A model generated the notes under the pieces. The model saw nothing but the letters and a program-made list of their open reading frames with translations. It was not told the origin of the DNA and did no database searches. Shown piece by piece: positions 26,601 through 59,900 of a stretch of DNA of 64,000 bases; positions within the stretch are counted from its first letter, which is position 1, and every line of letters starts with the position of its first letter. A program made the translations under genes and the position numbers. This DNA is from an uncultured Actinomycetota bacterium (GTDB lineage Bacteria; Actinomycetota; Thermoleophilia; RBG-16-64-13): NCBI GenBank assembly GCA_963783835.1, contig CAWAOX010000018.1, positions 152,435 to 216,434 on the forward strand, written 5' to 3'.

Positions 26601-26673
26601 GGGCCGTTAGCTCAGTTGGTAGAGCACCGGACTTTTAATCCGATGGTCGATGGTTCGAGTCCATCACGGCTCA
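26601..26673 (+). tRNA. tRNA-Lys (anticodon UUU), no encoded CCA
   Basis: Cloverleaf: acceptor gggccgt/acggctc (one G-U), D-arm gctc-agttggta-gagc, anticodon loop cTTTTaa, T-arm gatgg-ttcgagt-ccatc. A C27:A43 mismatch at the top of the anticodon stem. Confidence 0.85.
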
Positions 26674-26678
26674 TTAGG

Positions 26679-26706
26679 AAAGCCCCGCATTTGCGGGGCT
26701 TTTTCT
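26679..26706 (+). terminator. Intrinsic terminator after tRNA-Lys
   Basis: aaagccccgcatttgcggggcttttt (GC stem plus T-run) immediately 3' of the tRNA. Confidence 0.8.
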
Positions 26707-26954
26707 TGCGTCTTGAGGGACCGCTGCAGGCCGCGACGGGGGCCGGGACGCGCGCAGAATGTACACGGAATGCTGTGCGGTCCCGGTAGATATTTGACAC
26801 TGTGGCTCCGGTAGGTGTGTTCCACTTCGGGACGCGGCTCCGGTACCTGGGCGACAGTGGCTCCGGTACCTATGTGACACTTCGAGAGGACTTTGCCTCC
26901 CGGCTCCACACCAGATAGCAGGAGAAATCCGGCTATCTGGGGAGGGCAGACACC

Positions 26955-27567
26955 GTGCTTGTGGAGCTGGGACTGGTGGAACAACGGCACAAAGCCGTGC
27001 TCGAAGTGCTGGCGGGAGCCACGATCAGCGACGTGGCCATGAGGAACGGGGTCACCCGGCAGACGGTCCATCGCTGGCTGAGACGCTATGCCCGGTCGGG
27101 CTCGCCGGTCTCGTCGATCACTCCTCACGCCCGGCCAGGTGCCCGCACCAGATGGCCCCGGAGATCGAGGCCCGCGTCCTCGAACTTCGGGAGGCCCATC
27201 CCGGCTGGGGCCCGCGCACCCTGCGCCATCAGCTCGATCGCGAAGGTGTGGTCCCTCTTCCCGGGCGCTCCTCCATCTATCGCCTCTTGGTCCGTCACGG
27301 CCTGGTGGATCCTCAGAAGCGAAGACGCAAGCGGGAGGACTATAGCCGCTGGGAACGCAGCCGCTCCATGGAACTCTGGCAGATGGACATCATGGGCGGG
27401 GTGAAGCTGAAGGCGGGGCCGAACTCAAGATGATCACCGGACTCGACGACCACTCCCGCTTCTGCGTCTCCGCGCTCCTTGTGCCTCGGGCCACGGCCCG
27501 CCCGGTCTGTGAAGCTCTGGCGCTGGCCATGCGCCGCCACGGCGTCCCCGACCAGATCCTCACGGCG
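26955..27567 (+). pseudogene. IS481-family transposase, N-terminal 2/3 (HTH + start of DDE core), two frameshifts, truncated by the IS110 insertion after ...GVPDQILT
   Basis: Three frames: HTH ...TISDVAMRNGVTRQTVHRWLRRYARSG; MAPEIEARVLELREAHPGWGPRTLRHQL...ELWQMDIMGG; ITGLDDHSRFCVSALLVPRATARPVCEAL...GVPDQILT. Confidence 0.7.
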
Positions 27568-29140
27568 TGCTATGAGAGTTTTGTCAATTCCCCGTCTTGG
27601 GCTATCGGGCCGTTGGGCGTCCAATCGAGTGGAACATTCGGGATGGTCCGCGTGCGGACTTCCCATCGTGCTCGTCGGACTTCTTGCCCGAGGGAGCGAG
27701 GGTGGCCAAGCGGTCGCGACGAGCTGACATCACTCGATATCGCCCACGACAACGGACGACCTCTTCCTCTCTCCGGTATTAGCCGAAGCCCTCGGGAAAC
27801 TGCCAAGCGACGAGAGCGACTCCTTTCCACGCATGCTCCGCGTCAAAGGTCTCTCGCCGCTTCATAACCGCGAACGCGTAAAGCAGCAGCTTGTTCATGC
27901 AGGCGCCGAAGGCTTACGGTCCCGACCAAGGGCCGGTCTGGCCGCTGGATGAGCCGGTCGAAGTGGGCCCGGATCCGAGGGTTGTGCTGCAGACGGGACA
28001 GGGTGGCCATATAGAGGACCTGGCGCAGCCCCGACCGACCTCGGTGGGTCATGCCCTGTTTTCGACCGATCCGCTGCCCGGTGTCATGCCGGGAAGGATC
28101 GGTGCCCGCGAGCTTGATGAGCTGTCTGCCGTGGCGATACTTGTCGATCGAGCCCACATGGGCAAGGATGCCAGCGGCAGACGACCAAGCGAGGCCGGGG
28201 ATGCTGAGCAGATAGCGACTTTCCTCCACAACTGCAAGCACCTTCTGGATCTCATGGGCGAGCGCGTCAATCTGATCGCTCAGGAGATCGACGCGCCCAA
28301 CCAGACGAGCAAGTTCCCGGACCAGAGGGCCCAGAGCAGCCGCGGGGACCACCGTGCGCTGCGCCCTTTCATGAACAGCCATGAGCTTGAACCGCCAGAG
28401 CCGGCGACCCCGACTGGCGGCTTTTACCTGCGAATGAAGTCATTCACGGGAAGAGCCGCAATCTCCTGGGGAGTGAGGCCGAGCCTAAGGACAGCCACAC
28501 ACCCTGGGGCGAGAAGATCCGTCCAGACCGAACGCAGCTCCGGGGAAGACCCCATAGAGCTGATGGCTAAGCAGCGTCTTTAAGCGGGCCCGCTCCTCAC
28601 GCAGGCGGGCATATTCGCCCAGGATCGACGGAGTGGATCAGGGGCCAGCTTCCACCTTGGTTTCGGTGACCAGGTCGTTGCGCACAAGTTCGGCTATCTG
28701 TTCGGCGTCAGAAATATCGGTCTTGTGCCGGTTCATCTGCCGAGCTTCGCGCAGGCGGAAGGTGGCGAGAGGATTCACGATGACGTACTCCTCGCCGCGG
28801 GCTTCCAGATAGTGGGCCAGAGCCTCCCACACGTGTCCGGTTGCCTCAAAGGCAAATACACGCCGGCCTGCTGACTGTGAGGCAAGCAGTCGGGTTCGCA
28901 TCAGAAGATCGTCGAATCCGACGAGCGAGTGGGGAACCCGAAACCGAGTGAGCCGCTCTCCCTCCATCCGGCAGATAACTGCCTGGTGCTGCTCTCCCGC
29001 CAGGTCAAGCCCCACGATGATATCCTCGGGCTCAAGGCGTAGTCTCCGGGCCATGATGGTTACCTCCTTTGGTTTGGCGCCTAAGGAATAACCCATGACG
29101 GAGATTCACACCTACTCTTATTCTTCCATAGTTCCATACT
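27564..29140 (-). mobile_element. IS110-family insertion sequence nested inside the IS481 transposase gene (boundaries inferred from the interrupted ILT|DNG codons)
   Basis: The IS481 ORF reads ...QILT up to 27563 and resumes ...ILDNGHEF at 29136. The intervening 1.58 kb encodes an IS110-type DEDD transposase on the minus strand, with an 86-bp 5' and a 279-bp 3' non-coding region. Confidence 0.65.
27843..29054 (-). pseudogene. IS110-family (DEDD) transposase, N- and C-terminal domains in different frames (frameshift(s) between 28383 and 28637)
   Basis: N-domain IVGLDLAGEQHQAV...AFEATGHVWEAL...VNPLATFRLREARQMNRHKTDISDAEQIAELVR (DEDD_Tnp_IS110), ORF 28638..29096. C-domain LLSIPGLAWSSAAGILAHVGSIDKYRHGRQLIKLAGTDPSRHDTG (Transposase_20), ORF 27843..28382. 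AGGAGG RBS 8 nt before the ATG at 29054. Confidence 0.7.
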
Positions 29141-29423
29141 CGACAACGGCCACGAGTTCCAGGCCAAGTTCCACTGGCACGTCGAGGACCAGGGCATGCG
29201 CCATACCTACATCAAGCCAAGAAGCCCGAACTTAAACGGCAAAGTGGAGCGTTCCCACCTCACTGACGAACTCGAGTTCTACCAACTCCTTGAGTACACC
29301 GACGACGTCGATCTCGCGGAGAAGCTCGCGGTCTGGGAGGAGTTCTACAACGTCCATCGGCCGCACGCTGCTCATGACGGGCGGACACCCTATGAGGTCC
29401 TCAGAGAGAAGTTGGTATCGTGA
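29136..29423 (+). pseudogene. IS481-family transposase C-terminal piece (end of rve core)
   Basis: ILDNGHEFQAKFHWHVEDQGMRHTYIKPRSPNLNGKVERSHLTDELEFYQLL...LAVWEEFYNVHRPHAAHDGRTPYEVL. Confidence 0.7.
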
Positions 29424-29514
29424 AAGTGTCAACCGAGGTCGTACAGGTCACAGTCAGAGCTCAGAACTCCTGCAGCAACCGGTTGTCTGACGCATATCCT
29501 GACCGCCGTCCGGA

Positions 29515-30186: not shown

Positions 30187-30299
30187 TCTGGACTCCTTTG
30201 GTCTTGTCCTGCTATTCGTTAAGAACGCGGCGGTACGAATTCTCGTGCGAGTTACACTCTAGTTGCTGAGGACTAAGTCGGCGGAGCGGAACCCGCCCC

Positions 30300-31532
30300 T
30301 TACACCCTCGCGATAGTTTGTGGAGTCTTGTGGAGCCTCTCAGCTCCCTGATCGCCTACGATGTATCCATCGCATACGTTGGTCCAGACTCCCTCCCGCA
30401 CAGCGCCGGGGTGCACGGCTATGTTCATACCTCTCTCCAGCTTCCACGCCTCTTCGGGCCTGATGTTCGGCCGCTCGACAAGCGAAAGCCCTTGCCCATG
30501 GGAAAATGAGCGACCTGGCCTTCCGTAACCGCGCTCGGTTAGGAATTGAACCTGCTTCAGCCAGAGTTCTCCGGGTTCGGCACCCGGAACCATGGCCTTG
30601 GCGATGAGGTGCTGACACTCGAGCGCGTCGGCAAAAGCCTTCTCTAGGGAGGGAGAGGGCTCGCCCTGAACCGCGAAGATCTTGGTGATCTCGGTGTAAT
30701 AGCCGCAAGGTCCGTTTACTTCGACGAGCACTGAGACCTGATCCCCGGGCCGGATCACTCGGTTCTGCATACCGTAGACATCGAAAGGCACGATCGTACC
30801 CATCGGTCCCGAGCCCACCTGGATGATGCCTCGGGCACTACCGTGCTTGGAGCAGTAGTAGTGAGCCTCGGCGTACACATCGTAGTCGTGCATACCGGGC
30901 GTGATCGTCTTAGTAAGATGCTCGATACCGCATCCTCGAGCGCTGCGCAGCCCTTTATGCACTCGATCTCTTCGGGACTCTTGACGATCTTCAGCCGATC
31001 GACCAGTCGGTCGCATCGACGAACACCGCACCCGGTAGGTCTCGACCACGTACTCATAGAAGGTCACCGGAAGGAAGGTTTTCTCTACCCAGCCGATCTT
31101 AGGGTTCTTCTTTTCTCTGAGCACGCTGACAGCCAGTCTACCTTCCACTGTGCTCGAATAATGCGTGGTTGGGAAGTAGACGGCTCCCAGGGAGGCACCG
31201 ACGCCGCGTGCTAGTGCCATGGGCGGGAAAGGCTGGGTGGCGGGCGGCTCCATCCCGCAGTTGATCACCGCCATCTCACCCTCGAGCGGGAAGATCACGG
31301 TCATTGGATATTGATGGCGTGCCGCGAAGTCAGTGAACCAACGAAGAGTTCCTCCTAGAAACTCCTCGTGGTTTTGCATTACCAGATAGTCGAGCCCACG
31401 CTCTTGCATCATTTCTCGTGCGGCTTCCCAGCGGCGCTCGAGTTCGGGCGTGGAGATGCGATGGACCAGCCTCTCGACTGGGCTCACTGGGGTAGGATCA
31501 ACCACGGTCCTCTCCTTTCCTGACGAATGCAA
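30300..31532 (-). CDS. M24-family metallopeptidase (creatinase / Xaa-Pro dipeptidase-like); two compensating frameshifts near 30930-31040
   Basis: Pita-bread motifs ITPGMHDYDVYAEAHYYCSKHGSARG...GSGPMG...FSHGQGLSLVERP. The segment DRLVDRLKIVKSPEEIECIKGCAALED (typical M24) lies in a different frame (ORF 30755..31057). Confidence 0.7.
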   Translation of the reverse strand: MHSSGKERTVVDPTPVSPVERLVHRISTPELERRWEAAREMMQERGLDYLVMQNHEEFLGGTLRWFTDFAARHQYPMTVIFPLEGEMAVINCGMEPPATQPFPPMALARGVGASLGAVYFPTTHYSSTVEGRLAVSVLREKKNPKIGWVEKTFLPVTFYEYVVETYRVRCSSMRPTGRSAEDRQESRRDRVHKGLRSARGCGIEHLTKTITPGMHDYDVYAEAHYYCSKHGSARGIIQVGSGPMGTIVPFDVYGMQNRVIRPGDQVSVLVEVNGPCGYYTEITKIFAVQGEPSPSLEKAFADALECQHLIAKAMVPGAEPGELWLKQVQFLTERGYGRPGRSFSHGQGLSLVERPNIRPEEAWKLERGMNIAVHPGAVREGVWTNVCDGYIVGDQGAERLHKTPQTIARV

Positions 31533-32804: not shown

Positions 32805-34921
32805 ATGGGGTACAGGGTCGGGGCAGACGTGGGTGGAACCTTCACCGACCTGGTGGCTATGGATGAGACGGGCAGGGTGGTAATAGCCAAAGCGCCCACG
32901 ACTCCAGCTGACCAGTCCGTCAGCGTCCAAGACGCGATCAAGAAAGCTGGTATAGATCTCGGCGCGGTCGATTTCTTTTCCCATGGCACGACCGTCGGGG
33001 TCAACGCGGTGATTGAGAACAAGGGGGCGAAGGTCGCCGTCATCACGACAGAGGGGTTCCGGGACGTGCTCGAGCTGCGTCGCGGCCGGCGTGTCATCGA
33101 GAACCCCGACGACATGTACAACCTCCAAATGGACCTTCCCCAGGACTACGTAGGTGGCTACGACCCACTGGTCAGAAGGCCGCTCCGGTTCGAAGTCCCG
33201 GAGCGCCTCGACTACCAGGGCAGCGTCCTCCGGCCTTTGGACGAGGACGCGGTCCGACGGAGCGTGGAAGATATCCGTGCTCAGGGCGTCCAAGCGGTCG
33301 TCATCTGCTATTTGTTCTCCTTCATGAATCCGGCCCATGAGCAACGAACGGCGGAGATCGTACGAGAGATGATGCCGGACGTCGATCTCTCGGTCTCCAG
33401 TGATATCCTGCCCATCGTTCGCGAGTACGAGAGGCTCAGCACGGCCACCGTGAACGCCTATGTCATGCCCATAATGCGCTCGTATCTTGGCAAGCTGCGC
33501 GACGCGCTCAAAGCCGGCGGTTTCAACCGGGACTTCTACCTGATGCAGTCGAGTGGCGGCATCATGTCCTCGGAGGTCGCCGCACGCCGGCCCGTCTATA
33601 CCATCGATTCGGGCCCGGCGGGGGGAGTGACGGCTGCCGCCCAATTGGGAATGTCGTTGGGATACCCGGATGTCATATCATTCGACATGGGCGGAACGAC
33701 GGCGAAGGTGTGCGTCATCCGCGACGGCACGCCGGAGGTGACCAGCCAGTTCTGGGTGGGTTCGAGGTACTTCATCGGGGCTCCGGTAATGGACATGGTG
33801 GAGATCGGAGCCGGAGGCGGAAGCATCGCGTCGATCGACAAGGGCGGTGGAGTCCACGTCGGTCCTCGCAGCGCCGGGTCGGTGCCGGGACCGGTCTGCT
33901 ACGGCAAAAGTGGGACCGAGCCCACGGTGACTGACGCCGATCTGATCCTGGGCTACATCAATTCTGAATACTACCTCGGCGGCGACATGACGGTAGACAT
34001 CGAGGCGGCCCGGACGGCAATCAAGACCAAGATCGCCGATCCTTTGGGCATGAGCGTCTCTGAAGCCGCACATGGGATATACCGCTTGGTCAATGCCAAC
34101 ATGATCGGCGCCACCAGGGTCGTCACCATCCAGCGAGGGCACGACCCCCGCGATTTCAGCCTGGTTGTCTCCGGTGGGACCGCGGCCATCCACGCCGTTC
34201 GCATGGCCCAGGAGCTACGTATTCCTAGGGTGATAGTCCCCCTGCAGGCTGGCGTCTTCTCGGCGGTAGGCTTGATCACTGCCGACGCCCGCTACGATGT
34301 CCACCGTTCTTACGTCGCCCGAGGTTCGCAGGCCGACCCCGGTCGCATGCAGGCGATCTTCGATGAGATAGCTCGTGAGGCGGCCGCCAGGATCGCCGAA
34401 CTGGGGTTCGCGCCCGACGACATAGTGCTGCGCTACGAGATAGACATGCGTTATCTAGGGCAGGCCCACGAGGTACCGGTTGAGGTCCCCTGCGGCCTCG
34501 TCACGGCCATGGACGAGGCCACCCTGAAGAAGCTGGTGGAGCTCTTCCACGAGAAGCATCTTCACCTGTTCGGCCACGCTTCGCGGGAGTCGGAGACTGA
34601 GTTCATGACGCTTACCGTCGCTGCGATCGGCCCAATGACCCGCGGCGAGATGCACCCGATAGAAACGGGCACGGGGGACCCCGGCGCCGCGTTCAAGGGC
34701 GTCAGAAAAGTGTTCTTCCAGGAGGCCGGCGGCTACATCGACTGCAACACCTACGAACGATCCCTGCTCAGGCGAGCAACGTGATCGTCGGCCCTGCGAT
34801 CGTCGAGCAGATGGATACCACCACGGTCCTTCCCCCCGGGGAGACGGCCCGAGTCGACGAGTACGGCACACTGATCGTCGAGCTTGCCGCGGACCAGGGC
34901 GAAGACGCGAGGGAGGTATGA
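32805..34921 (+). CDS. hyuA: Hydantoinase/oxoprolinase family A subunit (HyuA-type, ATP-dependent); frameshift near 34770-34785
   Basis: YRVGADVGGTFTDLV (ASKHA N-domain)...DMGGTTAKV... The C-terminus ASNVIVGPAIVEQMDTTTVLPPGE is in a shifted frame. The stop overlaps the hyuB ATG (ATGA). Confidence 0.8.
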
Positions 34922-36774
34922 CGATGGCGGGGAAAGAGGAGCGCCAGGACGCATTCACCCTCGGAGTCCTCCGCAGTCTGATGGAATCCATCCCTCTGGA
35001 GATGGCAGAGGTGCTTAAGCGCACCTCGTATCACCCCATCTTCAACGAGGTCCTCGATTTCTCCACGGCTCTTCTGGATTCCGAGGGCCGCCTGATCGCT
35101 TCCTCGATGGGAGTGGCGGTCCACCTTGGAGCTCTGGAACTGAGCGCCAAGGCCATAGTTGGCCACCTGGGCAAGGAGAACTTGGCCAAAGGCGACGTGA
35201 TGATCCATAACAACCCCTTCCCGGGGGGAACCCACCTACCGGACGTCGACGTGATCGCTCCCGTCTACCACAATGGTGAACTCGTGGCCTACTCGGTGGC
35301 GCGCGGCCACCACGGCGATATCGGCGGGATGCATCCGGGAAGCTTCGCCGGTGATACGGTGAGCATCTTCCAAGAAGGGGTGCGGCTGCCGCCCATCAAG
35401 CTCTACGACCGCGGAGTGCTCAACGAGGGGGTGCAAAGATCTGCTGCTGGCGAACGTTCGTGTGCCCCAGTTCACCTGGGGTGACCTTCAGGCCCAGATG
35501 GCCGGGTGCAGGCTGGGCGAGCGGCGGATCGAGGAGCTGTTCGAAAAGCATGGAGCGGAGGCTATGCAGGCGGCGATGGATTGGGCCATGGACTACTCCG
35601 AACAGCTCATGCGCGCCGAGATCGAGCGAATACCCGACGGCACGTACACCTTCGAGGACTTCTTGGACAACGATGGGATCGACAAGGATCGGCCGGTGAA
35701 GATCCACGTCAAGGTCACCATCCAAGGCAGCGATCTGACTGCGGACTTCAGCGGCTCCGACCCCCAGGTGAAGGGGCCTGCCAACTGCGTGCTCGGGGTC
35801 GTCCATTCGGCCACCTATTGCGCAATGTTCAATGTGACCGATCCGGCCATGCCGAAGAACCACGGCTGCTACCGTCCTATCAAGATCATCGCGCCTGAGG
35901 GGCTGGTGGTGAACGCCAGGTTCCCTGCTCCGGTCGTGAGCGGCAACACCGAGACGTCCCTGCGCATAATCGACGCCCTGACCGGCGCTCTCGCCAGGGT
36001 CATCCCCGAGAAGGTGATCGCGTCCGACTCAGGTACCGCCACCGCGCACATAGCGGCGGTTTCGATCCCCGCAACGGGGACTACTACGCCTGGTACCTCG
36101 GGTCCGACCCCACCGCGTGGGGGGCGCGGGCGACGAAGGACGGCTTCGAATTGGCCGGGGGGCCGCGGATAGGCGGCAGCGTGTCGCAAGTGTCGTTCGA
36201 GGTATTTGAGACCCGGTACCCTTTCCTGGTGGAAGAGTACGCCTATTATCCCGACTCCGGCGGCCCGGGCCGTTTTCGCGGTGGGATGTCGGGGGTGACC
36301 ATCATGCGGCCTGTGGGACACGAGTGCGATGTGGGAGGAGCCAACGACCGCTGCGTCATACCGCCATACGGCATTTTCGGTGGAATGCCCGGACTGCACG
36401 GCGAGAACAAGATCATCCACGCCGACGGGACGGAGACGCGCATAGATCGTGCCGGCGGCGAGATCGCCCGTGATGGAGATGTCCTCTACTTCAGGGCGCC
36501 AGGTGGGGGTGGGTATGGGGATCCCCTTGACCGCGACCTCGGCTACCTACAGCACGACCTCGATATTGGTCTGGTCTCTTCGGAAAGCGCGCGCAGGGAC
36601 TACGGCGCCGTTCTTGTCGAGGGGACGGCGACGATAGATCGCCAGTCTACTGAGGAGAACCGGGCAAAGCTCAAGGGGGAATGGAGGCGAGACCAGATCT
36701 TCATCGATCAGATGACCAAGCCCTTCGCCCAGCAGGGGTTTCGTGTCGTCGGCCTCGACGAGGAGATTTGTTGA
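34918..36774 (+). CDS. hyuB: Hydantoinase/oxoprolinase family B subunit (HyuB-type); two frameshifts (near 35470 and 36160)
   Basis: Three consecutive ORFs in different frames (34918..35484, 35462..36172, 36151..36774) together give ~619 aa of Hydantoinase_B (…VIAPVYHNGELVAYSVARGHHGDIGG…, …FETRYPFLVEEYAYYPDSGGPGRFRGG…). Confidence 0.75.
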
Positions 36775-36817
36775 TCCGTGGACAAACCGATATGTGAAGG
36801 ACCGAAGGGGGTCATGC

Positions 36818-50458: not shown

Positions 50459-51949
50459 ATGAGCAGCGGGGGAAAAGAGCCGAAAGACCGAGAAGGCGCG
50501 ACCGGCGCAACGCCGGGACCCGTCATCAGCCGGAGGGAGTTCCTCAAGGTCGCGGGGATAGCTGGCGCCGCGATTGGTGTCGGCGCGGGGCTGGGCGGGT
50601 TGCTGGCCGCCTGCGGTAATGAGACGACCACCACGACCGGGGCGCCGACCACCGGGGCGCCGACCACCCAGGCGACCACGGCTACGACGGCGGCGGCCAG
50701 CACCACCACCGTCAGTGCTGCCGCCGAGATGGGCCGGGAGATTAAGATCGGTGTCGTGATGCCCAAGACCGGCCCGCTGGCGGCCTTCGGCCCGGCGGAC
50801 GAGTGGGGCGCCAGTCTGGCGTCCGAAGTGATAGGGGACGGGATGGTCCTTGGGGACGCCAAGAAGCACCCGGTCACCTTCGTGCTGAGAGACTGTCAAT
50901 CCGACTCCAACAGAGCCGCCCAGATAGCGGGCGATCTTATCCAGAACGACAAGGTGGACATACTCCTGGGCTCGGTGACTCCCGATGTCACAAACCCGGC
51001 TGCGGATCAGGCCGAGGCCATGGGGACGCCTTTCATGACCAGCTATGCTCCCTGGCAGGCGTTCATATTCGGGCGGGGCGCCGATCTGACCAAGACGTTC
51101 AAGTGGACGTATGCTCATTCGATGGGCACCGAGCAGATGGGCTATAGCATCATCGGGGCCGTAGATCAGATCCCCAACAACAAGATGGTCGCACTTATCA
51201 CCATGAACAACCCGGACGGCAATGCCTGGCTGGACGACAAATACGGCACCCCGGTGGCCTTGCGAAAGTACGGCTATGAACTGGCCGCCTCCACCCAGTT
51301 CAATCTAGGCTCCGAGGACTTCACCAAGGAGATCGCCACTTTCAAGAAGGCGGGCGTCGACGTGCTGATCGCCGCAATGCAACCGCCGGATTTCACCAAT
51401 TTCTGGAAGCAATCGATGCAGCAGGGGTTCACTCCTAAGATACCGAGCGGAGGGCTGGGCATCACGATGCCTCCGGGCGTGGCTGGCATCGGCCCGCAAG
51501 CAGTCGGCCTGATCATCGAGCACGGCTGGACTCGGGACTATCCCTACATCGATCCTCTCACCGGGATGAATTGCCCGCAGTTGGCGGCGAGATGGGAGAA
51601 GGACACCGGCCTCCAAGAGCAATTGTCCATCGGCTTCCTGGACAAGTTCGCGTGGACGGTAGATGTGCTCAAGCGCACCAAGAACCTGGACGACAAAGAG
51701 TCGATCGTCGAGGCCATCAAGACCACCAAGATGGACGGCATAACCGGTCCCATCGATTTCACTGCCCCGATCGACGCCGATCCAACTGCGACGGACAGCT
51801 TCCGGCCGCATCCGAACGTGTCCAAGCCCGTGTGGACCGGTGCGCAATGGATCAAAGGGACGACGTGGCCTATCGACGCGGTGACCGTGAATAACGTATT
51901 GGCTCCGGCGGTGCCGACGGTGCCGACAGTCCCGTACGTGTACGCATGA
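50459..51949 (+). CDS. Orphan ABC substrate-binding lipoprotein, branched-chain-amino-acid type, paralog B
   Basis: AAGGAG RBS. SRREFLKVAG plus lipobox LLAAC, a T/A linker, then IKIGVVMPKTGPLAAFG...CQSDSNRAAQIAGDLI. Confidence 0.75.
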   Translation: MSSGGKEPKDREGATGATPGPVISRREFLKVAGIAGAAIGVGAGLGGLLAACGNETTTTTGAPTTGAPTTQATTATTAAASTTTVSAAAEMGREIKIGVVMPKTGPLAAFGPADEWGASLASEVIGDGMVLGDAKKHPVTFVLRDCQSDSNRAAQIAGDLIQNDKVDILLGSVTPDVTNPAADQAEAMGTPFMTSYAPWQAFIFGRGADLTKTFKWTYAHSMGTEQMGYSIIGAVDQIPNNKMVALITMNNPDGNAWLDDKYGTPVALRKYGYELAASTQFNLGSEDFTKEIATFKKAGVDVLIAAMQPPDFTNFWKQSMQQGFTPKIPSGGLGITMPPGVAGIGPQAVGLIIEHGWTRDYPYIDPLTGMNCPQLAARWEKDTGLQEQLSIGFLDKFAWTVDVLKRTKNLDDKESIVEAIKTTKMDGITGPIDFTAPIDADPTATDSFRPHPNVSKPVWTGAQWIKGTTWPIDAVTVNNVLAPAVPTVPTVPYVYA

Positions 51950-52093
51950 AACTAGATAGGACCGGGTGCCGCCCAGCAGGTGCCCGGTCCCAGGCGCAAG
52001 GCAGGTAGTCGACCCCCTGTGTAGGGGCCGCCCCCAGTCCAGCGGGGCTGCGGGGCGGCCCAAGACATCCGAGAGCGGGTCACCGAAAGAAGG

Positions 52094-52981
52094 ATGGAGC
52101 GTATGCACCGAGTTCTCTTGCCCTTTGAGTTCGCCGAGCCCACGAGCGTGGCCGAGGTCATCGAACTCGTGGACGGCGAGAAGGCCAGACCGCTAGCCGG
52201 AGGCGTCGATCTTGTCCTCAAGATGCGGCTGCGCCAAGTCGTCCCGGAGAGGGTGGTCAGCCTGCAGAAAGTGCCCGGCCTGGACTACGTGCAGGCGGAT
52301 GGCTATACGCTCAGATTCGGCGCTCTAGCCACGCTCAGGCAGATTGAGCGGGCACCGGAGGTCAAGGACCGGTGGCCCCTCCTGGCCGAAGCCATCGGTT
52401 GCATCGTGTCCGTGCAGACCAAGGTGATGGGCACGGCGGTCGGCAACCTGTGTGTCGGCACCCCGGCGTCCGACGTGGCCCCGGCCCTCTACGCCCTCGG
52501 CGCCCGGGTGAAGATCGCCGGCAGGCAGGGGGTGCGGGAGATCCCCATCGAGGAGTTCTTCGTGGACGCCGGGAAGACCGCGGTCGGGCGTAACGAGATC
52601 GTGACAGAGATCGTGGTGCCGGTCCCGCCTTTGGGGAGCGCCGGCGCTTTCCTCAAGCTCTCCAAGACCTCCGAAGATATCGCCAAAGTGAACGCCGCCG
52701 TCATGGTGTCCGTTTCCGGCGACACCTGCACTTCGGCTCGGATCGCCCTTGGCTCGGTGGCGCCGACCCCGGTGAGGGCGGTGGAAGCGGAGCAAGTGCT
52801 GCAAGGACGGCCTTTGAGCGCGAAAGCTATCGCGGAGGCAGCCGAAGCGGCCTGCGAAGCGGTCGCTCCGATATCCGACGTGCGCTCCACCGCGGCCTAC
52901 CGCAACGAGATGGTGCGGGTGCTGGTCCGGGACGCGCTGGTCAGGGCGGTCTCGCGAGTCCCAGCTGCAAAGGAGGGATGA
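52094..52981 (+). CDS. Xanthine-dehydrogenase-family molybdoenzyme, FAD-binding medium subunit (CoxM-like)
   Basis: PCMH-type FAD domain (…ARPLAGGVDLVLKMRL…) with a CO-dehydrogenase-flavoprotein C-terminal domain. Translationally coupled to the next two genes. Confidence 0.75.
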   Translation: MERMHRVLLPFEFAEPTSVAEVIELVDGEKARPLAGGVDLVLKMRLRQVVPERVVSLQKVPGLDYVQADGYTLRFGALATLRQIERAPEVKDRWPLLAEAIGCIVSVQTKVMGTAVGNLCVGTPASDVAPALYALGARVKIAGRQGVREIPIEEFFVDAGKTAVGRNEIVTEIVVPVPPLGSAGAFLKLSKTSEDIAKVNAAVMVSVSGDTCTSARIALGSVAPTPVRAVEAEQVLQGRPLSAKAIAEAAEAACEAVAPISDVRSTAAYRNEMVRVLVRDALVRAVSRVPAAKEG

Positions 52982-53466
52982 TGGCCAAGGAGATAGCGAC
53001 CTTTCTCGTCAACGGCGGGGAGTACGAAGTCATCATCGAGCCCCACGTGCTCCTCATCGATGTGCTCCGGGACAAGCTCGGGCTCACCGGGACCAAATAC
53101 GCCTGCGGCGCCGGTGACTGCGGCGCCTGCACCGTCCTCATCGACGGCAGACCTTCGTTCTCGTGCCTCACGCTGGCGGTCACAGCCAAAGGCAAGAGCA
53201 TCTTTACCATCGAGGGCCTGGCGGAAGGAAATGAACTCCATCCTATCCAGCAGGCTTTCGTGGATAAGGGAGCCATCCAGTGTGGCTTCTGCACGCCGGG
53301 CATGATCCTCTCGGCCAAGGCGCTGCTGGATGAGAACCCCGAGCCCACCCGGGAGGAGATAAAGAGCGCTCTTGCCGGCAACCTATGCCGCTGCACCGGT
53401 TATGTGAAGATCCTGGACGCCGTTGAGTCTGCAGCCGCCGGCCTGAGGAACGGAGGGCAACGATGA
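52978..53466 (+). CDS. Xanthine-dehydrogenase-family [2Fe-2S] small subunit (CoxS-like)
   Basis: CGAGDCGACTV (plant-type 2Fe-2S) plus CGFCTPGM...CRCTGY (second cluster). Confidence 0.8.
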   Translation: MMAKEIATFLVNGGEYEVIIEPHVLLIDVLRDKLGLTGTKYACGAGDCGACTVLIDGRPSFSCLTLAVTAKGKSIFTIEGLAEGNELHPIQQAFVDKGAIQCGFCTPGMILSAKALLDENPEPTREEIKSALAGNLCRCTGYVKILDAVESAAAGLRNGGQR

Positions 53467-55775
53467 CCATGAATACGTTCTCCTGCGTCGGCAAGCCGCT
53501 TACCCGGCCAGATGTTGCTGCCAAGGCTACTGGTGCAGCCGAATACGGAGCCGACGTCACGCTTCCGGGCATGCTGATCGGCAGGATCCTCACTAGCCCA
53601 TACGCTCATGCCAACGTTGTCAAGATCGACACCTCGAGGGCGAGAGCTCTTCCCGGGGTGGCCGCGGTAATAACCCACGAAGACGTCCCCAAGAGAAGCT
53701 TCACCCGCTCGGTCATGGCCGAGGGCCTGCCCCCGTTCGCCTATGAGGGCGAGAATCAGGATCAGTACATCCTCTCCGACAAGGCCCGGTACGTCGGCGA
53801 CTGGATCGCCGCGGTGGCCGCCGTCGATGTGTACACGGCTGAGCGGGCCCTCGACCTCATCGAGGTCGAATACGAGCCGCTTCCCGCCGTCTTCGACCCG
53901 GCAGAAGCCCTCGAGCCGGGTGCTCCCACCGTCCACGAACGCTGGAGGGACAACGTCGCCGGGGTCATCGAGCACTCGTTCAACCGGGGCGACCTGGACA
54001 AGGCCTTGGCCGAGTCCGAATACGTGGTCGAGTTCTCCGGCCGCAATTCCCGGCAGAAACAGGCTCATATGGAGCCGGACGTGGCGGTAGCGCGCTGGGA
54101 CGAACGCGGCCGAGTGACGATCTGGTCGCCGAACCAGAACGCTCACCTCGCCAAGAGGACCATGGCACGGAGGATCTTCGGCATCGGCGAGGGGGACGTC
54201 CGCTGGATCACCACGACCGTGGGCGGAGGGTTCGGGGCTAGGCTCAGTCTTGGAGTCGAGCCGCTCGCCGCGCTACTCGCCAAGGTGACCGGCAAACCGG
54301 TGAAGGTGATCATCACCCGGGAAGAGGACTTCAGTGGCTGGAGCAGCCGTACGGAGCAGCGTCAGACCATCCGACTCGGCGTCACCAAAGATTGCATCAT
54401 CACAGCCATCGAGCAGAGGATCGTCTCCGACGCCGGCGCCTACTTCTCCCACAGCGGCACTATCAGTGCCGTCAACATGCAGGGGACGTTGGGAGTGATG
54501 CGTGCGCCCGTGATATACGGCAAGGCAACGATCGTCTACACCAACAACCCCACCTCGAGCGGCATGCGGGGATACGGCAACCCGGAGGGGTCCTTCATCC
54601 TGCAGCAGGCTATCGACATGGCCGCCGAGAAGTGCGGGATGGACCCCCTCGAGTTCCGCCTGAGGAACGCCAGGGGGGTGGGTGAGCCCAGCATGTGGGA
54701 GCCCCAGATCCTGACGAGTTGCGCTCTTCCTGAGTGCATCACCCGGGGCGCCGAGGCCATCGGCTGGAAGGACAAGTGGTTGGGGTGGGGCCGAAAGAAG
54801 GAGGGCCGCTACCGGCGCGGAGTGGGCATGTCCATCATGACCCACGCAAGCGGCGCGGGTGGCTTCCTCCTGGAACACTCGACCGCCTCCATCAAGTTGA
54901 ACGAGGACGGCTCGGCCCAGCTTGCGGTCAGCCCCTGTGAGATGGGCCAGGGCATCCTCGGCGCCCTCTCGCAGATCGCCGCCGAAGGGATGGGTCTCCG
55001 CTACGAAGACATCCACGTGGTGACCGGGGATACCGACGTCACTCTCTTCGATATCGGCACCCACGCCAGCCGCTCCACCTACGCCATCGGCAACGCCGTC
55101 CTCGACGCGGGTCGCCAGATCAAGGCCATCGTCCTCGAGCGGGCGGCCGCAAGGCTGGAGGCTGCGCCTGAAGCCCTCGACATCAGAGAAGGCCGAGTCT
55201 ACGCGAATGACGATGCCGCGAAAGGCCTGAGCGTGGCCGAGATAGCGAGCGAGGGCATCTACGACTACGGCTTAGACGCGCGGCACATCCAGGCGACCGG
55301 CAAGCACCAGAGCCTCACCCACTGCCCCAACTTCCAGGCGGGTTTTGCCGAGATCGAGGTCGATCTCGAGACCGGGGTGATAAAGGTGCTCAAGTTCGTG
55401 GTCGCCCACGACATCGGCCGGGCCATCAACCCGCTCACGGTGGAGTCCTGTCTTGAAGGGGGCGCCTATCAGGGCTTGGGCTATGCGTTGACCGAGGACC
55501 TCCTTATAGACGGCAAGACCGGCAAGGTGCTCACCGACAGCTTCGCGACCTACAAGATGCTCTCCACCCTGGATATGCCGCCAGTAGAAGTCATCCTCGT
55601 AGAAGAACCCGATCCGACCGGGCCCTTCGGAGCCAAGGGCGTGGGCGAGACCGGAATCACTAACGTGGCGCCCTCGATTGCGAACGCTCTGTACGACGCG
55701 GTCGGTGTACGGATCCATTCGCTTCCGATGACCCCAGAAAAGGTTCTGGAAGCGCTAAAGACGAAACAGGCTTAG
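53463..55775 (+). CDS. Xanthine-dehydrogenase-family molybdopterin-binding large subunit (CoxL-like, hydroxylase type)
   Basis: 770 aa with aldehyde-oxidase/XDH a/b-hammerhead and MoCo domains. GGGFGAR motif (hydroxylase-type rather than the CODH VAYRCSFR loop). Confidence 0.8.
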   Translation: MTMNTFSCVGKPLTRPDVAAKATGAAEYGADVTLPGMLIGRILTSPYAHANVVKIDTSRARALPGVAAVITHEDVPKRSFTRSVMAEGLPPFAYEGENQDQYILSDKARYVGDWIAAVAAVDVYTAERALDLIEVEYEPLPAVFDPAEALEPGAPTVHERWRDNVAGVIEHSFNRGDLDKALAESEYVVEFSGRNSRQKQAHMEPDVAVARWDERGRVTIWSPNQNAHLAKRTMARRIFGIGEGDVRWITTTVGGGFGARLSLGVEPLAALLAKVTGKPVKVIITREEDFSGWSSRTEQRQTIRLGVTKDCIITAIEQRIVSDAGAYFSHSGTISAVNMQGTLGVMRAPVIYGKATIVYTNNPTSSGMRGYGNPEGSFILQQAIDMAAEKCGMDPLEFRLRNARGVGEPSMWEPQILTSCALPECITRGAEAIGWKDKWLGWGRKKEGRYRRGVGMSIMTHASGAGGFLLEHSTASIKLNEDGSAQLAVSPCEMGQGILGALSQIAAEGMGLRYEDIHVVTGDTDVTLFDIGTHASRSTYAIGNAVLDAGRQIKAIVLERAAARLEAAPEALDIREGRVYANDDAAKGLSVAEIASEGIYDYGLDARHIQATGKHQSLTHCPNFQAGFAEIEVDLETGVIKVLKFVVAHDIGRAINPLTVESCLEGGAYQGLGYALTEDLLIDGKTGKVLTDSFATYKMLSTLDMPPVEVILVEEPDPTGPFGAKGVGETGITNVAPSIANALYDAVGVRIHSLPMTPEKVLEALKTKQA

Positions 55776-55788
55776 GAGAGGAGCTCTC

Positions 55789-56583
55789 ATGAGGATGATC
55801 GACCCCCATCTGCACTTGGACCGCATGAAGGGCAAAGACGTCGAGACCCTCTCTATCGCGGGAGTCGAGGCGGCGGTGCTGCCGACACCCCATCTTCTGC
55901 AGTGGATGGTCTCGGCGGAGACGCTCTTTCGGATGTGGCGCATGTTCTTGGACTTCGAGGTCAAGCACTCCGAATCGCTTGGTATCAAGGTCTTTGTGAC
56001 CCTGGGCGTCCCTTTCTACGGACTGGATACGGAATCCGTGGCCGAGGCCCTGGTCGAGCTGCCCAAGTATCTGAGCCATCCCTCCGTCGTGGGTCTCGGG
56101 GAGATAGGCATGGACGCCGGCATAGCCGACGAGGAGAAGATCTTCCGGAGACAACTGGCCATCGCCAAGGAGCATGACAAGCCAGTGATTGTGCACACCC
56201 CGACTCCGTTGGAGCCACAAGCCACGGACGTCTTCCGCCAAATAGTCAAAGTGGTCGAGAGCGAGCACTTCCCCATGGATCGGGTGGTATTCGATCACAC
56301 TGGGATCCAGACCCTGAAGGAACGCCTCAATACGGGAGCTATGGTCGGACTGAGCCTCTGCTACGACAAACTCCGGCCGGAAGACGCAGCCGAGGTGGTT
56401 GCCGAGTACGAGGATTACCGGCCACAACTGCTGGTCAATTCGGAATTCGGCTACAGCGGGGAAGGGTACTACTCGGTACCGCGGGCGGTGCTCTCTATGC
56501 GGAGACTGGGACTCAAGAGGGATGTCATCGAAGGCGTCACCTGGGATAACCCGCGTAGGTTCTTTGGTCTGAACGTGGATTAG
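55789..56583 (+). CDS. TatD-like metal-dependent hydrolase, paralog B
   Basis: AGGAGAGGAG RBS. MRMIDPHLHLDRMKGKDVETLSIAG..., about 85% identical to the paralog at 43596. Confidence 0.7.
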   Translation: MRMIDPHLHLDRMKGKDVETLSIAGVEAAVLPTPHLLQWMVSAETLFRMWRMFLDFEVKHSESLGIKVFVTLGVPFYGLDTESVAEALVELPKYLSHPSVVGLGEIGMDAGIADEEKIFRRQLAIAKEHDKPVIVHTPTPLEPQATDVFRQIVKVVESEHFPMDRVVFDHTGIQTLKERLNTGAMVGLSLCYDKLRPEDAAEVVAEYEDYRPQLLVNSEFGYSGEGYYSVPRAVLSMRRLGLKRDVIEGVTWDNPRRFFGLNVD

Positions 56584-56666
56584 GGACGGGAGGCCCTCCG
56601 CTGAGAGCTTGAGCGTGGTGGTGTACCATGACCGCGAATACGGATGAATCGAGAGTTGAGCTGTAG

Positions 56667-56756
56667 ATGATACAAAGTCTAGTCAAGGGGCTGATGGTTC
56701 TATCGCTCTTCGACAAGGTTCGGTCGGAGTGGACCTTGGTACGCCATCAAGTCTGA
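56667..56756 (+). pseudogene. 30-codon remnant of an IclR-regulator N-terminus (duplicate of 38852..)
   Basis: MIQSLVKGLMVLSLFDKVRSEWTLV then a stop. Compare MIQSLVKGLAVLSLFDKVHPEWTLD at 38852. Confidence 0.7.
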
Positions 56757-57008: not shown

Positions 57009-58590
57009 CTAGAACCGCATGTTCAGTATCCCAGCCGTGCGGGGACGGTGACGGGCAGGCCCGGTCGGCGGCAGGGCGGTCGAGCGCCGACAGTAGAAGG
57101 CGATGCCGTAGGAAAGGGCATCGGCGGTGTGTTCGGCCTCGTTGTGCTCAAGGTCGGTCTCCTTCGTCACCCTACCTTCTGCGTCGGTGGGCCACTTGGC
57201 TTCTTCCAGGTCACGGGCGAAGTCCTCGAGATCTGCCCGATAGGCGAATCGCCCCCTTCTGTTCTGGCCGATGTCCCGCTCCGCCATCATGTCCCGGACC
57301 AGGCGAATGCGGTCAGCGAACGTTCTTCAGGTGGGCGGGGCGATGACATGGATGCCATAGCGTTCGCTCAGCTCCCCGAAAGACTGAGCGCCCGTAAGTG
57401 AGGTCCCGATTAAAGCCAGAGGGGTCTCCGGTCACCTGCAGCTTGCCGTAGCTGACCCGCCAGGTGCGCTATGAGGTCGGCGTAGGTCTCGGCCGTGGCA
57501 TCGTGTCCCTTCCAGGCGTCCATCACCCGGCACTCGCTCACCCCCGGTACCTCGACGAACTGGAGAGAGCACCGCGGCCGCCGTAGTCACCCCCGGGTCG
57601 ATGCTGACCACGAACACCCCGCCCGGCTCGATGGCCAGCTCGGCGCACCCATGGCGGGCGGCGTCGAACTCGGGGAAGGCCCGGCCGGCGATGGAGCGCT
57701 CGTAGCTGATGTCGAGCTCCTGGGCGACCTGCTCCGGGGGCATGCAGCTGGCATTGCTCGTCATACCAGGGGCTGCGCCACTCCCCACCCTCGCAGGGCT
57801 GCGAGCGCCCCGGGATGGCGTGACCCCTCCGGGGCACTGGTACTGGTCCCGTCCCTTTCACGGGGATGCTGCGCTCCAGTGGTGGCGGACCTGCTGCAGG
57901 GTGTCGGAGCTCCCGCAGCTAGGCGAAGACGTTGCTCTGTGCCCTGCGGGGTGGAGAGGTAGATGGGGACAGCGCACCGCCTGGGCGAAGGCGGCCTGGA
58001 TGGCGCAGCTGTGCTCGGTGGCGGCGGTCTCGTCCCAGAGACCGTAGAGGAAGGTGCCGCCCCGCCCGGCGTTGGGGTTGGCCGCCTCCCCGATGATGGC
58101 TGGCCTCCGAGCACCGGGTTGACGAGACTCAGGTGGCGGATCTCCAAGCGGAACGTCTCCTCGCCCGGCAGCCGTTCATACATGAAGCGGATCTTGCCGT
58201 GGAGCGAGTCGGGGGTGGAGTTCTGCCCCCCGTCATCCACCTTCTGCTCCTTGCGGCTGATGTTGAGGGCCTGGAAGTTCCTCCAGTGCTCAGGGTGTAG
58301 AGCTCCAGCGCCATCATGAGCCAGGTGTCGCCCATCTGCCGGGACTTCTCGGTACGGATGCCGGCCGGTTCGTCCGCGGCGGGCCTTGGCCACCTCGGTC
58401 GAAGAAGATGCGGACGAAGTCCTCCTGGTAGTCGTAGAGGTCGAAGGGGAGGACCCCGCCGGGAGCGGTGGGGTCCAGGATGAGGCAGTTCGCCTCGATC
58501 CAGGCGATGCAGTGCTCGGCCTGGACCTCGAGCGGCTGGCGACTCGATGCCCGGGCCGCGCCGGGCCAGCTCCTCCCGTATGTGCCTCAA
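57009..58590 (-). pseudogene. Phage terminase large subunit, split over 3-4 frames
   Basis: Minus-strand pieces: ...PFDLYDYQEDFVRIFFD (N-terminal ATPase region), ...ISYERSIAGRAF...VFVVSIDPGVTTAAAV (nuclease domain), ...HNEAEHTADALSYGIAF (C-terminus). High GC, unlike the catabolic block. Confidence 0.55.
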
Positions 58591-58593
58591 GCG

Positions 58594-59016
58594 TCACGTT
58601 GAGTACGAGCTTCCTAGTGTCCATGCTGACGCTCCACGATCTTCTCGAGGTGGTCTAGTTCGACGATCGGAAAGAGCGGATAGGTCGATGGGGACGGCCT
58701 GGATCTGGATGGGCCCCCCGTCGGGTCCGGCGAGGCGCACGGGGGCATCGAGCCCCAGCAACTCCGACCGGAGTTTCTTGATGAGGCGCCGCTCGGTCAT
58801 GAAGCGCGGATCCTTGGTGTTCTGGAACTGAAGGGCGCAGTCGCGCTCCATCTCGAAAAGATCAGCGACCTCTTTGCCCCGCAGCGCCTCGACGTCACCG
58901 AGTGCCGCTTCGCGCCAGCGGGAGACCAGGATCTTGACGTCGCGGGCGACGGTCGGTTGGCTCACCCTGAGCTGCTCGGCGATCTCCTGCTGGCGCATGC
59001 CCAGGCGGAAATACAT
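58594..59016 (-). CDS. Phage terminase small subunit-like HTH protein
   Basis: MRQQEIAEQLRVSQPTVARDVKIL (HTH)...RLIKKLRSELLGLDAP. Sits immediately upstream of the terminase-large fragments. Confidence 0.5.
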   Translation of the reverse strand: MYFRLGMRQQEIAEQLRVSQPTVARDVKILVSRWREAALGDVEALRGKEVADLFEMERDCALQFQNTKDPRFMTERRLIKKLRSELLGLDAPVRLAGPDGGPIQIQAVPIDLSALSDRRTRPPREDRGASAWTLGSSYST

Positions 59017-59085
59017 CTCCGAGACCTTGGATCGCGGCGTTCTTCCGCCCGAAGACGAGCGGCCTGTATCTGTCCGGCGGCCATG

Positions 59086-59463
59086 TCACTCACCCCCTTC
59101 AAGAAGACGGGGGACGAGACCCATGCCCGCCAGGCGTTCCAGACTCACGGCCACATACTTGGGTTCGAGCTCCAGGGCGTAGCAGACCCTGCCCGTCTGC
59201 TCAGCCGCCACCGCGGTGGTGCCGGAACCCAGGAAGGGATCGAAGACCAGTGTCGCCCGGGCGGCTGGAGTTGAGCAGCGCCCGGCTGAAGAGTTCGACC
59301 GGCTTCATGGTGGGATGCTCCTCGGAGCGGGCCGGACGCGGGATCTGCCAGAGGTCGCTCTGGCTGCGGTCTTCGACCGGGACCAGCCGGCGTGCGCCCG
59401 TTCCTTCCAGCCGTACCAGATGGGCTCATACTGGGTGTGGTAGTCCTTGCGGGACGCCCTCAT
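59086..59463 (-). pseudogene. Phage-type N6/N4 DNA methyltransferase, C-terminal part only, frameshifted
   Basis: Minus strand reads ...DYHTQYEPIWYGWKE...HPTMKPVELFSRALLNSSRPGD. With a 1-nt correction it continues TVFDPFLGSGTTAVAAEQTGRVCYALELEPKYV (PF01555 C-terminal motifs). The N-terminal DPPY region is missing. Confidence 0.5.
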
Positions 59464-59900
59464 CGAGATCTTCCACCGCGGGGTGCTGGTGAAAGCCCAT
59501 GCCCGCCGTCACCCGAAAGACGCACCGCCTCCTGTCCGCGGCCACCACATGTCCCGGTCGAAACCGCTCCCGCCAGAGCCAGCGCCCGGCGGCACACTCA
59601 TGCGCATGGTCGACCCCACCGGCTGCGTGAGCTTCGCGGGAAGGAGTTATCGGATGGGGAAGCCTTTCAAGGGCCTGCAAGTCGAGGTGCGCCTCGAGAA
59701 GGACATGCTGGAGCTGTGGCTAGACGGAGAGCGGATCCGCACCCATAAAGCCACCCACGATCCGAGCAAACTCTACGGGGCCTTCGCCAATCCCGGAGGC
59801 AGACCGCGCAAGAAGAAGGCCTCATGAAGAAATCGCCAAAACCTTCGAGACCTGAGTGACTGTAACAAGAGTACCGGAACTCAAGTGGAACACGGGTACC
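59447..59900 (+). mobile_element. Remnant right end of a second IS481-type (or IS21-type) element: transposase C-terminal fragment plus terminal repeats
   Basis: …RMVDPTGCVSFAGRSYRMGKPFKGLQVEVRLEKDMLELWLDGERIRTH… (post-DDE C-terminal domain). 59850-59900 gtaccggaactcaagtggaacacgggtaccggaacttgacacgtgtacc is the inverted counterpart of the left-end repeats at 26796-26882 (shared aagtggaacac, taccgga, tgacac). Confidence 0.55.

Follow-up and report, generated by a model that had tools for sequence, protein, structure and literature searches.

Downstream of a tRNA-Lys gene in an uncultured Actinomycetota bacterium (Thermoleophilia, RBG-16-64-13), about 33 kb of accessory DNA is bracketed by two matching insertion sequence (IS) ends, which raises the question of whether this segment arrived as a single transposing unit. 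We analysed a stretch of 64,000 nucleotides (nt) around it (contig CAWAOX010000018.1, positions 152,435 to 216,434), here called the window. The matching ends belong to an IS481-family element type of 1.65-1.77 kb with a Mu-transposase C-terminal domain, which we named IS-A. Our comparisons indicate that they stem from two IS-A copies, each truncated, of which one contributes the left end and the other the right end, and that they do not delimit a unit that transposed. The 33 kb in question (26.77-59.91 kb) is probably an ordinary, decayed and non-mobile mosaic of mobile-element remnants and catabolic genes, and the window retains neither an intact transposase nor an intact integrase. The features of the region are listed below, where IS-B is our name for the source element of the piece at 29142-29514.

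26600-26674, plus strand: intact tRNA-Lys (anticodon UUU), called by ARAGORN and matched by Rfam RF00005 with 72 bits; conserved in L003 and L173
26675-26773, plus strand: terminator hairpin (agccccgcatttgcggggct) and a spacer with the TGTACACGGAA motif; resident tRNA flank, not island DNA
26774-27564, plus strand: 5' part of IS-A; blastn match to L002 152-966 (70%), tblastn match to the L083 transposase (59-72%), Pfam and NCBIfam matches
27565-29141, minus strand: IS110/IS1111-type element; Pfam PF01548 and PF02371, NCBIfam IS110
29142-29514, plus strand: 3' part of IS-B, a different IS481-family element, with a stop at 29423 and a tail of uncertain extent; Pfam rve_3, NCBIfam IS481 positions 195-283
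29515-56737, no single strand: catabolic block; Pfam matches, internal repeats (77-80%), GC content 0.603, match to L177
56738-56927, no single strand: scrambled remnant of a second iclR paralogue and downstream DNA, with the breakpoint of the block, from comparison with L177
56928-59452, minus strand: prophage remnant with pieces of a terminase large subunit (TerL), a helix-turn-helix (HTH) open reading frame (ORF) resembling a terminase small subunit (TerS), and methyltransferase pieces; PHROG and Pfam matches, GC content 0.656
59453-59911, plus strand: 3' fragment of IS-A; Pfam match, blastn match to L002 1446-1916, tblastn match to L083 residues 343-483
59912-59918, plus strand: CGTGTAC, seven bases between the IS-A end and DNA shared with L176
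59919-64000, no single strand: conserved flank with a lyase-like gene, a GntR/FCD regulator and the SBP_bac_5 start of a peptide ABC transporter operon; 98.6% identical to L176 over 4082 nt, Pfam matches

The left-end motifs noticed in a preliminary description of this DNA are real, with four units of the GGCTCCGGTA type within 26781-26870 and GTGTTCCACTT at 26817; the element itself starts at 26774 and not at 26796, as had been proposed. Their reverse complements do return on the right, at 59862-59911, and the right IS end is at 59911. Direct alignment of the two ends gave a shared order of TGT..CCGGTA, GTGTTCCACTT and then ..TCCGGTAC. In the 64 kb, GTGTTCCACTT was found at the two ends only, while TCCGGTAC is enriched, with six occurrences as compared to 1.5 expected, four of which are at the two ends. 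This similarity is not due to low-complexity sequence, since an independent metagenomic IS (L002, a contig with a nearly complete element that was reached via homologues of the right fragment) matches both ends and nothing else in the window. According to blastn, its positions 152-966 align to 26774-27558 and its positions 1446-1916 to 59453-59911, and the intervening positions 967-1445 have no counterpart in the window.

A metagenome scan recovered 79 further loci with an IS-A element, which brings the metagenomic copies that have both ends to about 80. Among about 50 copies, the ends read TGTGCNG..CCGGT and ..CCGGNNCTTGACA, with several subterminal GGCTCCGGTA-like repeats. The intact transposase of locus L083 consists of 484 amino acids (aa) in a single ORF (2128-3582), with no programmed frameshift of the IS3 kind, and scored 288.8 bits against the NCBIfam IS481 model (NF033577; cut-off 224), which places it in the IS481 family. 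The IS-A fragments of the window are 59-72% identical to this transposase and, being fragments, score under the cut-off on their own. The left remnant contains the left inverted repeat TGTGCGGTCCCGGTAG, four subterminal repeats of the GGCTCCGGTA type and transposase codons 1-203 (HTH, HTH_32 and the first catalytic D), which are spread over three frames. The right remnant contains the last ~126 transposase codons, two subterminal repeats and a right inverted repeat ending in ...GTACCGGAACTTGACA; its ORF at 59447-59827, correctly recognized before as a transposase C-terminal fragment, matches Pfam Mu-transpos_C_2 and is 60.6% identical to L083 residues 343-483. The left (codons 1-203) and right (codon ~343 to the end) remnants do not overlap, and of the catalytic residues of IS-A, the second and the third are missing from the window. 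Both remnants are located on the plus strand and only their terminal repeats are inverted; the ends had been described as lying in inverted orientation because the left end was compared with the right end of one and the same IS type. A tblastn alignment that extended the right fragment to 59411 was rejected, as the opposite strand encodes the methyltransferase motif HTQYEPIWYGWK there.

Target-site duplications in the IS481 family range from 4 to 15 bp. Duplications of 11-15 bp directly abut the ends in 11 of the 26 complete IS-A copies for which both flanks were available (e.g., GTCTGTGCGGTCTG in L083 and GCGTGAGACGTGGCG in L107). No duplication was identified around the 33 kb, where the outer flanks, ..ATGTACACGGAATGC| and |CGTGTACCCCAGTGC.., share a longest word of 5 nt, which equals the null expectation. 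The two halves also have different closest relatives. The left half shows 74-76% nucleotide identity to L169, L112 and L173 and 69-72% to L084, L083 and L002, whereas the right half is 78, 72 and 70% identical to L084, L083 and L002, respectively, and 66% identical to L112 and L173. Taken together, the missing duplication and the different relatives of the halves suggest two separate IS-A copies. Neither copy could have supplied the transposase of a composite transposon in its present form, with the left one stopping at codon 203 and the right one starting near codon 343, and the same unit with the same IS ends was not seen elsewhere: in L177, the end of the block meets iclR and a partial tRNA-Lys, and in L173 the left IS-A is present without the cargo. 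The window thus resembles composite transposons of the Tn5/Tn10 type in that its cargo is located between two copies of one IS type with intact outer ends, but differs from them in the lack of a duplication and of a working transposase, in the different sublineages of the copies and in that one copy is resident and cargo-free in a relative. The description of two IS copies of which one is mostly deleted comes closest among the readings offered before, except that both copies are truncated and that the left one is fused via IS110 to another IS481 member. For annotation, this means that a set of genes between matching IS ends should be called a composite transposon only if a target duplication is present and other copies of the IS have been compared, and in the window both the duplication test and the copy comparison argue against one.

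We also examined the sequences on both sides of the IS110-type element, which had been described as nested in an IS481 element. It does lie inside IS481-family sequence, but its two sides belong to two different IS481-family elements. On its left, IS-A stops at ...ATC CTC ACG (ILT, residue 203), and the frame is taken up again on the right with GAC AAC GGC (DNG), the piece at 29142-29423 reading DNGHEF...NGKVERSH...HRPH. This IS-B piece shows 35% aa identity to the L083 transposase, as compared to 60-72% for the IS-A parts, and ends without a Mu_C domain. Judged from these alignments, the left element is a hybrid of two IS481-family members joined by IS110. The DEDD transposase of the IS110 in the window is broken by at least three frameshifted stretches and has 85-97% aa identity to P0087 (431 aa). 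Close relatives (77-90% aa identity) were found on 14 metagenome contigs (L162-L175), and in all 14 the IS110 has identical junctions, is located exactly before the DNG codons and is antisense to an rve-type transposase gene of the IS-A/IS481 or IS3 type. The junctions follow the pattern CCGTTGTC-N|AGTATG ... CATAGCACGC|CGTGAGG or CCTTCTT. The target lies between ..ACG or ..AGG and GACAAYGG, that is ILT^DNG at the codon of the second catalytic Asp, with the site form ATCCTCACG^GACAACGG. The IS110 clade is thus site-specific for the conserved DNG coding sequence, because the same junctions recur in every contig. In several of these contigs, the host IS type to the left of the IS110 differs from that to its right, either via recombination between copies or as assembly chimeras.

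To place the tRNA-Lys gene in context, we compared the window to related sequences. The closest genome in the species collection, L003 (PurH 76%), is syntenic with window positions 10391-26704 and unrelated beyond, the break being just past the tRNA terminator. About 450 nt downstream of its tRNA-Lys, L003 contains a tyrosine-recombinase (Phage_integrase) ORF at 14118-15269 on the minus strand; the genes beyond it have no relation to the window, which means that in L003 this hotspot is taken up by another element. Integration by an integrase typically leaves a partial tRNA repeat behind, and two such repeats were identified. In L177 (JGI 3300064048, Ga0598239_0005889), a segment with 98.2% identity to window 52137-56737 is followed by an intact iclR paralogue, 370 nt and a 64-nt partial tRNA-Lys. 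This repeat (L177 5680-5742) matches the 3' part of tRNA-Lys and the terminator in the window (26637-26700) at 90.6%, starts in the anticodon loop and was not called as a tRNA. In L112, a partial tRNA-Lys of ~40 nt, likewise from the anticodon loop, is followed by the spacer and IS-A. Williams reportedly described an anticodon-loop class of integration sites in 2002. The synteny break and integrase in L003 and the partial repeats in L177 and L112 uphold the earlier suggestion that tRNA-Lys is a hotspot of integration or variation in this lineage. Because the 98%-identical copy in L177 ends in a partial tRNA-Lys repeat, the catabolic block was probably the cargo of a tRNA-Lys-targeting island that was relocated by IS-associated recombination.

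By contrast, the idea that the accessory DNA starts right after the tRNA through integration at the tRNA site could not be sustained. L173 aligns continuously with window 26545-29150 at 80%, covering the DNA upstream of the tRNA, tRNA-Lys, the spacer, the 5' part of IS-A and IS110, and past the IS110 it continues with the 3' half of IS-A and, 15 nt later, with a second IS-A. The terminator is conserved in L003, L177 and L173, and the spacer motif in L173 and L112. The tRNA-Lys, the spacer and the IS-A interrupted by IS110 (IS-A::IS110) therefore represent a resident arrangement shared with L173, and the attachment (att) position of the tRNA in the window is empty. No second 3' part of tRNA-Lys was found in the window at up to three mismatches, there was no Phage_integrase match among the ORFs scanned in 26.7-60 kb, and tblastn with the L003 integrase gave nothing below E=1. 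The locus is thus similar to tRNA-integrated islands and prophages in its synteny breakpoint at tRNA-Lys, the integrase at this position in L003, the lower GC content of the cargo, and the partial tRNA-Lys copies in L177 (64 nt) and L112 (~40 nt) that start in the anticodon loop. It differs in that the att site is empty, that neither an integrase nor a distal repeat is present, that the native flank directly follows the tRNA as in L173 instead of being displaced by island DNA, and that the cargo is attached via IS sequences ~100 bp and further downstream of the tRNA. As a separate observation, L173 and L174 (reverse complement) contain tandem IS-A copies downstream of tRNA-Lys that are 15 nt apart, which equals the length of a duplication, and in L174 both tandem copies have an IS110 at the same site.

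On the right side, the second iclR gene of the block is truncated at 56737, the point at which L177 has an intact iclR, and thereafter the window keeps only the counterparts of L177 5266-5308 (direct) and 5336-5365 (inverted). The prophage remnant that follows contains TerL pieces at ~57012-58586, the HTH/TerS-like ORF at 58597-59085 and pieces of an N6/N4 DNA methyltransferase at 59089-59469, all broken across frames, with the methyltransferase fragments in three frames according to PHROG and Pfam matches. The earlier label of phage debris stands for the methyltransferase and TerL remnants, but the predicted TerS is only an HTH protein adjoining TerL. The TerL identity is transitive: full-length homologues of the piece at 57435-57857 match PHROG terminase large subunit families, while direct searches with the TerL pieces gave no match in Pfam, PHROG or PDB and two scans of viral contigs were unproductive. 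At 0.656, the GC content of 56.6-59.45 kb lies between that of the catabolic block (0.603) and that of the left core (0.669), which agrees with the earlier statement that the right part (56.9-59.5 kb) is high in GC and differs in composition from the block and, together with the gene content, with a mosaic. The right IS-A end is located 53 bp beyond the stop of a tyrosine phenol-lyase/tryptophanase-like gene (59965-61344, minus strand). In the near-identical strain L176, this lyase is 99% identical, and the nucleotide identity to window 64000-59919 (4082 nt) is 98.6%; beyond the 59919 point, L176 diverges into IS3, IS21 and other accessory genes.

We propose, with moderate confidence, a stepwise assembly of the mosaic in a plasticity zone beside tRNA-Lys. 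The starting state is the resident order seen here and in L173, that is tRNA-Lys, terminator, spacer and an IS-A with IS110 at ILT^DNG, with the att site of the tRNA unoccupied. The catabolic block would have come from an element that integrates elsewhere into tRNA-Lys. The left junction, which consists of the 5' part of IS-A, IS110 and the 3' part of IS-B, would then have arisen most likely when an IS110 copy in IS-A recombined with another in IS-B, an event that joined the block to the tRNA-Lys locus; this route is the most likely one because many rve-type transposase genes have an insertion of this clade at these same codons. The right side shows a series of deletion junctions, from the truncated iclR via the prophage remnant to a 5'-truncated IS-A of another sublineage. 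Several points weigh against this proposal. The window lacks the reciprocal product (5' part of IS-B, IS110, 3' part of IS-A). In L177, a partial tRNA was seen beside the right end of the block only, and no integrase or left attachment site was found. The absence of a duplication is weak evidence alone, as 15 of the 26 complete IS-A copies in the metagenome contigs likewise lack one; flank exchange or assembly effects may be the cause in these copies. Furthermore, the limits of the variable segment nearly equal the outer IS-A ends (26774 and 59911, with the shared DNA ending at 59919), as would also be expected from one event with a single IS-A. Frameshifts are weak evidence of decay because the assembly probably has homopolymer indel errors, as suggested by a frame change in purM (19660-20701) at a CCCC run (20300-20320) relative to L003, and the broken transposases and a fragmented hydantoinase B gene may in part be indel artefacts. 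Finally, a mis-join at a repeat may be present in the assembly.

Among the alternatives to a stepwise mosaic, we considered that the matching ends are the two halves of one resident IS-A::IS110. A circular element, for example an excised tRNA-Lys island with IS-B::IS110, the block and the phage-like genes, would have fused with it via recombination between the two IS110 copies, and later deletions would have removed the att site, the integrase, the 5' part of IS-B, the second IS110 and ~140 codons of IS-A. The left break exactly at the IS110 site, where the IS110 is flanked by IS-A and by IS-B, the whole IS-A::IS110 at this tRNA in L173, the end of the variable segment at most 8 nt from the right IS-A end, and the connection in L177 of the block to a tRNA-Lys-associated element able to excise are all in agreement with such a split. 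Yet the outer flanks lack the 14-15 bp duplication, the right half groups with another IS-A sublineage, the right break (~codon 343) is off the IS110 site so that at least two further deletions are needed, and the tandem IS-A copies in L173 and L174 show that the right end could come from a neighbouring copy. We therefore regard a split copy as unlikely, although it keeps an appreciable chance. It is quite improbable that an integrase inserted the whole element here as a tRNA-Lys island and that a later invasion of ISs erased the integrase and the distal repeat. In favour of such an insertion, the region adjoins the tRNA, has a lower GC content and breaks synteny, an integrase is located at the same tRNA in L003, and the block ends in a partial tRNA-Lys repeat in L177. 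But the terminator, the spacer and IS-A::IS110 3' of the tRNA represent the resident flank, which is found without the island in L173 and distal to the partial tRNA in L112; at an occupied site this flank should lie beyond the island, and the window contains neither a partial tRNA copy nor a remnant of an integrase.

An assembly artefact, in which chimeric joins at the repeated IS110 or IS-A of a metagenome or long-read assembly would have wrongly brought together tRNA-Lys, the block and the lyase flank, is in our view very improbable. In its favour, exact-protein look-ups failed for core genes (25131-26168, lyase, PurH, cyclase), purM has its homopolymer indel, and the flanks of this IS110 are mixed in short metagenome contigs. 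Against it, long reads readily cross a repeat of 1.6 kb, internal parts have matches of 98-100% in independent contigs, and the right junctions (iclR/phage and methyltransferase/IS-A) are unique sequences rather than repeats. The nearly identical DNA came from the samples ERR10755939 (100%, internal parts) and ERZ25039503 (98.6%, right flank). The composite transposon suggested in the preliminary description, in which two direct IS-A copies would have moved the 33 kb beside tRNA-Lys via their outer ends and the inner parts would have decayed later, is largely refuted and receives hardly any credence from us. In its favour, the outer ends have the correct polarity and are intact with their subterminal repeats, and the cargo is located between copies of the same IS type. 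On the other side, no duplication flanks the unit and no transposase is present in cis, the left IS-A and IS110 are resident at this tRNA in the cargo-free relative L173, the halves are from different sublineages, and in L177 the block is bounded on its right by a partial tRNA repeat and not by an IS. In the stepwise reading that we prefer, the region is an example of tRNA-adjacent accessory DNA assembled by IS recombination rather than by a tRNA-site integrase.

The IS110 clade may be the most interesting by-product of this analysis. With a DEDD transposase (PF01548 and PF02371), a sequence-specific target and no long terminal inverted repeats, the element belongs to the IS1111-like group of the IS110 family. 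Its non-coding DNA amounts to ~240 nt 3' of tnp, as compared to ~45 nt 5' of it. The 3' non-coding region (27565-27805, minus strand) is more conserved than the coding part across eight copies, and contains CCAACGGCC (27607-27615) and the invariant CCGUUGUC (27748-27755), which equals the target flank, the 8-mer match alone being near chance. RNAalifold predicted a structured RNA for this region, which is a candidate seekRNA or bridge RNA; no bridge-RNA or seekRNA family in Rfam matched the IS110. The region appears to fit the seekRNA/bridge-RNA mechanism that has been described for IS1111-type elements (PMC11187229, PMC11208160). Members of the IS1111 group are known to target mobile elements under the guidance of a seekRNA or bridge RNA, such as IS4321/IS5075 in the inverted repeats of the Tn21 family and ISKpn4/ISPst6 in attC sites (PMC11208160, PMC11187229). 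The IS110 of the window is similar to this group in its DEDD transposase, the absence of terminal inverted repeats, the long non-coding region 3' of tnp and one fixed target in another mobile element, but differs in that the target of its clade is coding DNA, the ILT^DNG codons of IS481- and IS3-type transposase genes, always in antisense orientation. We found no description of an ILT^DNG target in the literature in a search that was not exhaustive. A tentative proposal, which we consider possible but somewhat short of probable, is that the clade consists of RNA-guided "hyperparasitic" ISs whose guide matches the DNG-motif codons and which inactivate other transposons, and that their scattered identical copies serve as portable recombination sites that stitch together unrelated IS-flanked segments, here the tRNA-Lys cargo and the resident IS. 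A clade with a fixed target in catalytic-site codons would offer a natural test case for the target rules of guide RNAs.

IS-A itself shares with the IS481 family a DDE (rve) transposase encoded by one ORF with an N-terminal HTH, ends that start with TGT and finish with ACA, and duplications (11-15 bp) inside the family range. It differs in the length of the transposase (~484 aa) with an extra Mu-transposase C-terminal domain (PF22483), in the several subterminal GGCTCCGGTA repeats at each end, which are reminiscent of the ends of Mu, Tn552 or IS21, and in its length of ~1.65-1.77 kb. No description of an IS481 subgroup with a Mu_C domain was found in a likewise non-exhaustive literature search. 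Searches of plasmid and phage collections yielded nothing useful (tblastn with the right fragment and with a concatenated TerL pseudo-protein, blastn with the left IS part and IS110). IS-A is a widespread IS481 subgroup characterized by the Mu-type C-terminal domain, multiple subterminal repeats and 14-15 bp duplications, and may be useful to researchers of mobile elements. The IS-A loci L123 and L125 have reciprocally swapped flanks (GCGGTCCTGGCGCA and GGTCCGGGGGCGTC), a pattern expected from recombination between copies.

The catabolic block encodes enzymes of amide and N-heterocycle-type catabolism, binding proteins and IclR regulators. Its Pfam content includes two cyclases, an M24 peptidase, an SDR protein, hydantoinases A and B, two MBL-fold and two RidA proteins, IclR, two Peripla_BP_6 proteins, an OYE/FAD reductase, a molybdopterin oxidoreductase with a 4Fe-4S protein, a three-subunit enzyme similar to xanthine dehydrogenase/CODH, two TatD-like proteins and a glyoxalase. 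Two paralogous modules (MBL-fold, binding protein, TatD-like amidohydrolase, IclR) are located at 36743-44390 and 49454-56737, 12.2-12.7 kb apart, with ~75-80% nucleotide identity. The hydantoinase B gene is in three pieces (34918-36774). A "tRNA-Val" of 93 nt called by ARAGORN at 30273-30365 (minus strand) overlaps the 3' end of the M24 peptidase ORF, has no Rfam support and is probably a false positive.

At the right flank, L176 contains at 11427-14700 an IS3-family element interrupted by IS21 (IstA/IstB), which starts within a few bases of where the window has its right IS-A end; ISs have thus landed repeatedly in the DNA 3' of the phenol-lyase-like gene. The CGTGTAC at 59912-59918 exactly fills the gap that separates the IS-A end from the DNA in common with L176, and in reverse complement it equals the GTACACG at 26761-26767. 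We considered the pair as an extended inverted repeat or a duplication; the duplications of intact relatives abut TGTG.../...GACA directly. The left GTACACG is part of the spacer motif TGTACAC(G/C)GAA, which is conserved in L173 (twice) and L112. Upstream of tRNA-Lys, an ORF of 345 aa (25131-26168, minus strand) has a GC3 of 0.86 and strong coding statistics, with no Pfam match, and is missing from L003 in the region of synteny. Rfam identified a cobalamin riboswitch (63 bits) at 19035-19219 on the minus strand, upstream of the Peripla_BP_2/FecCD transporter genes (16630-18889).

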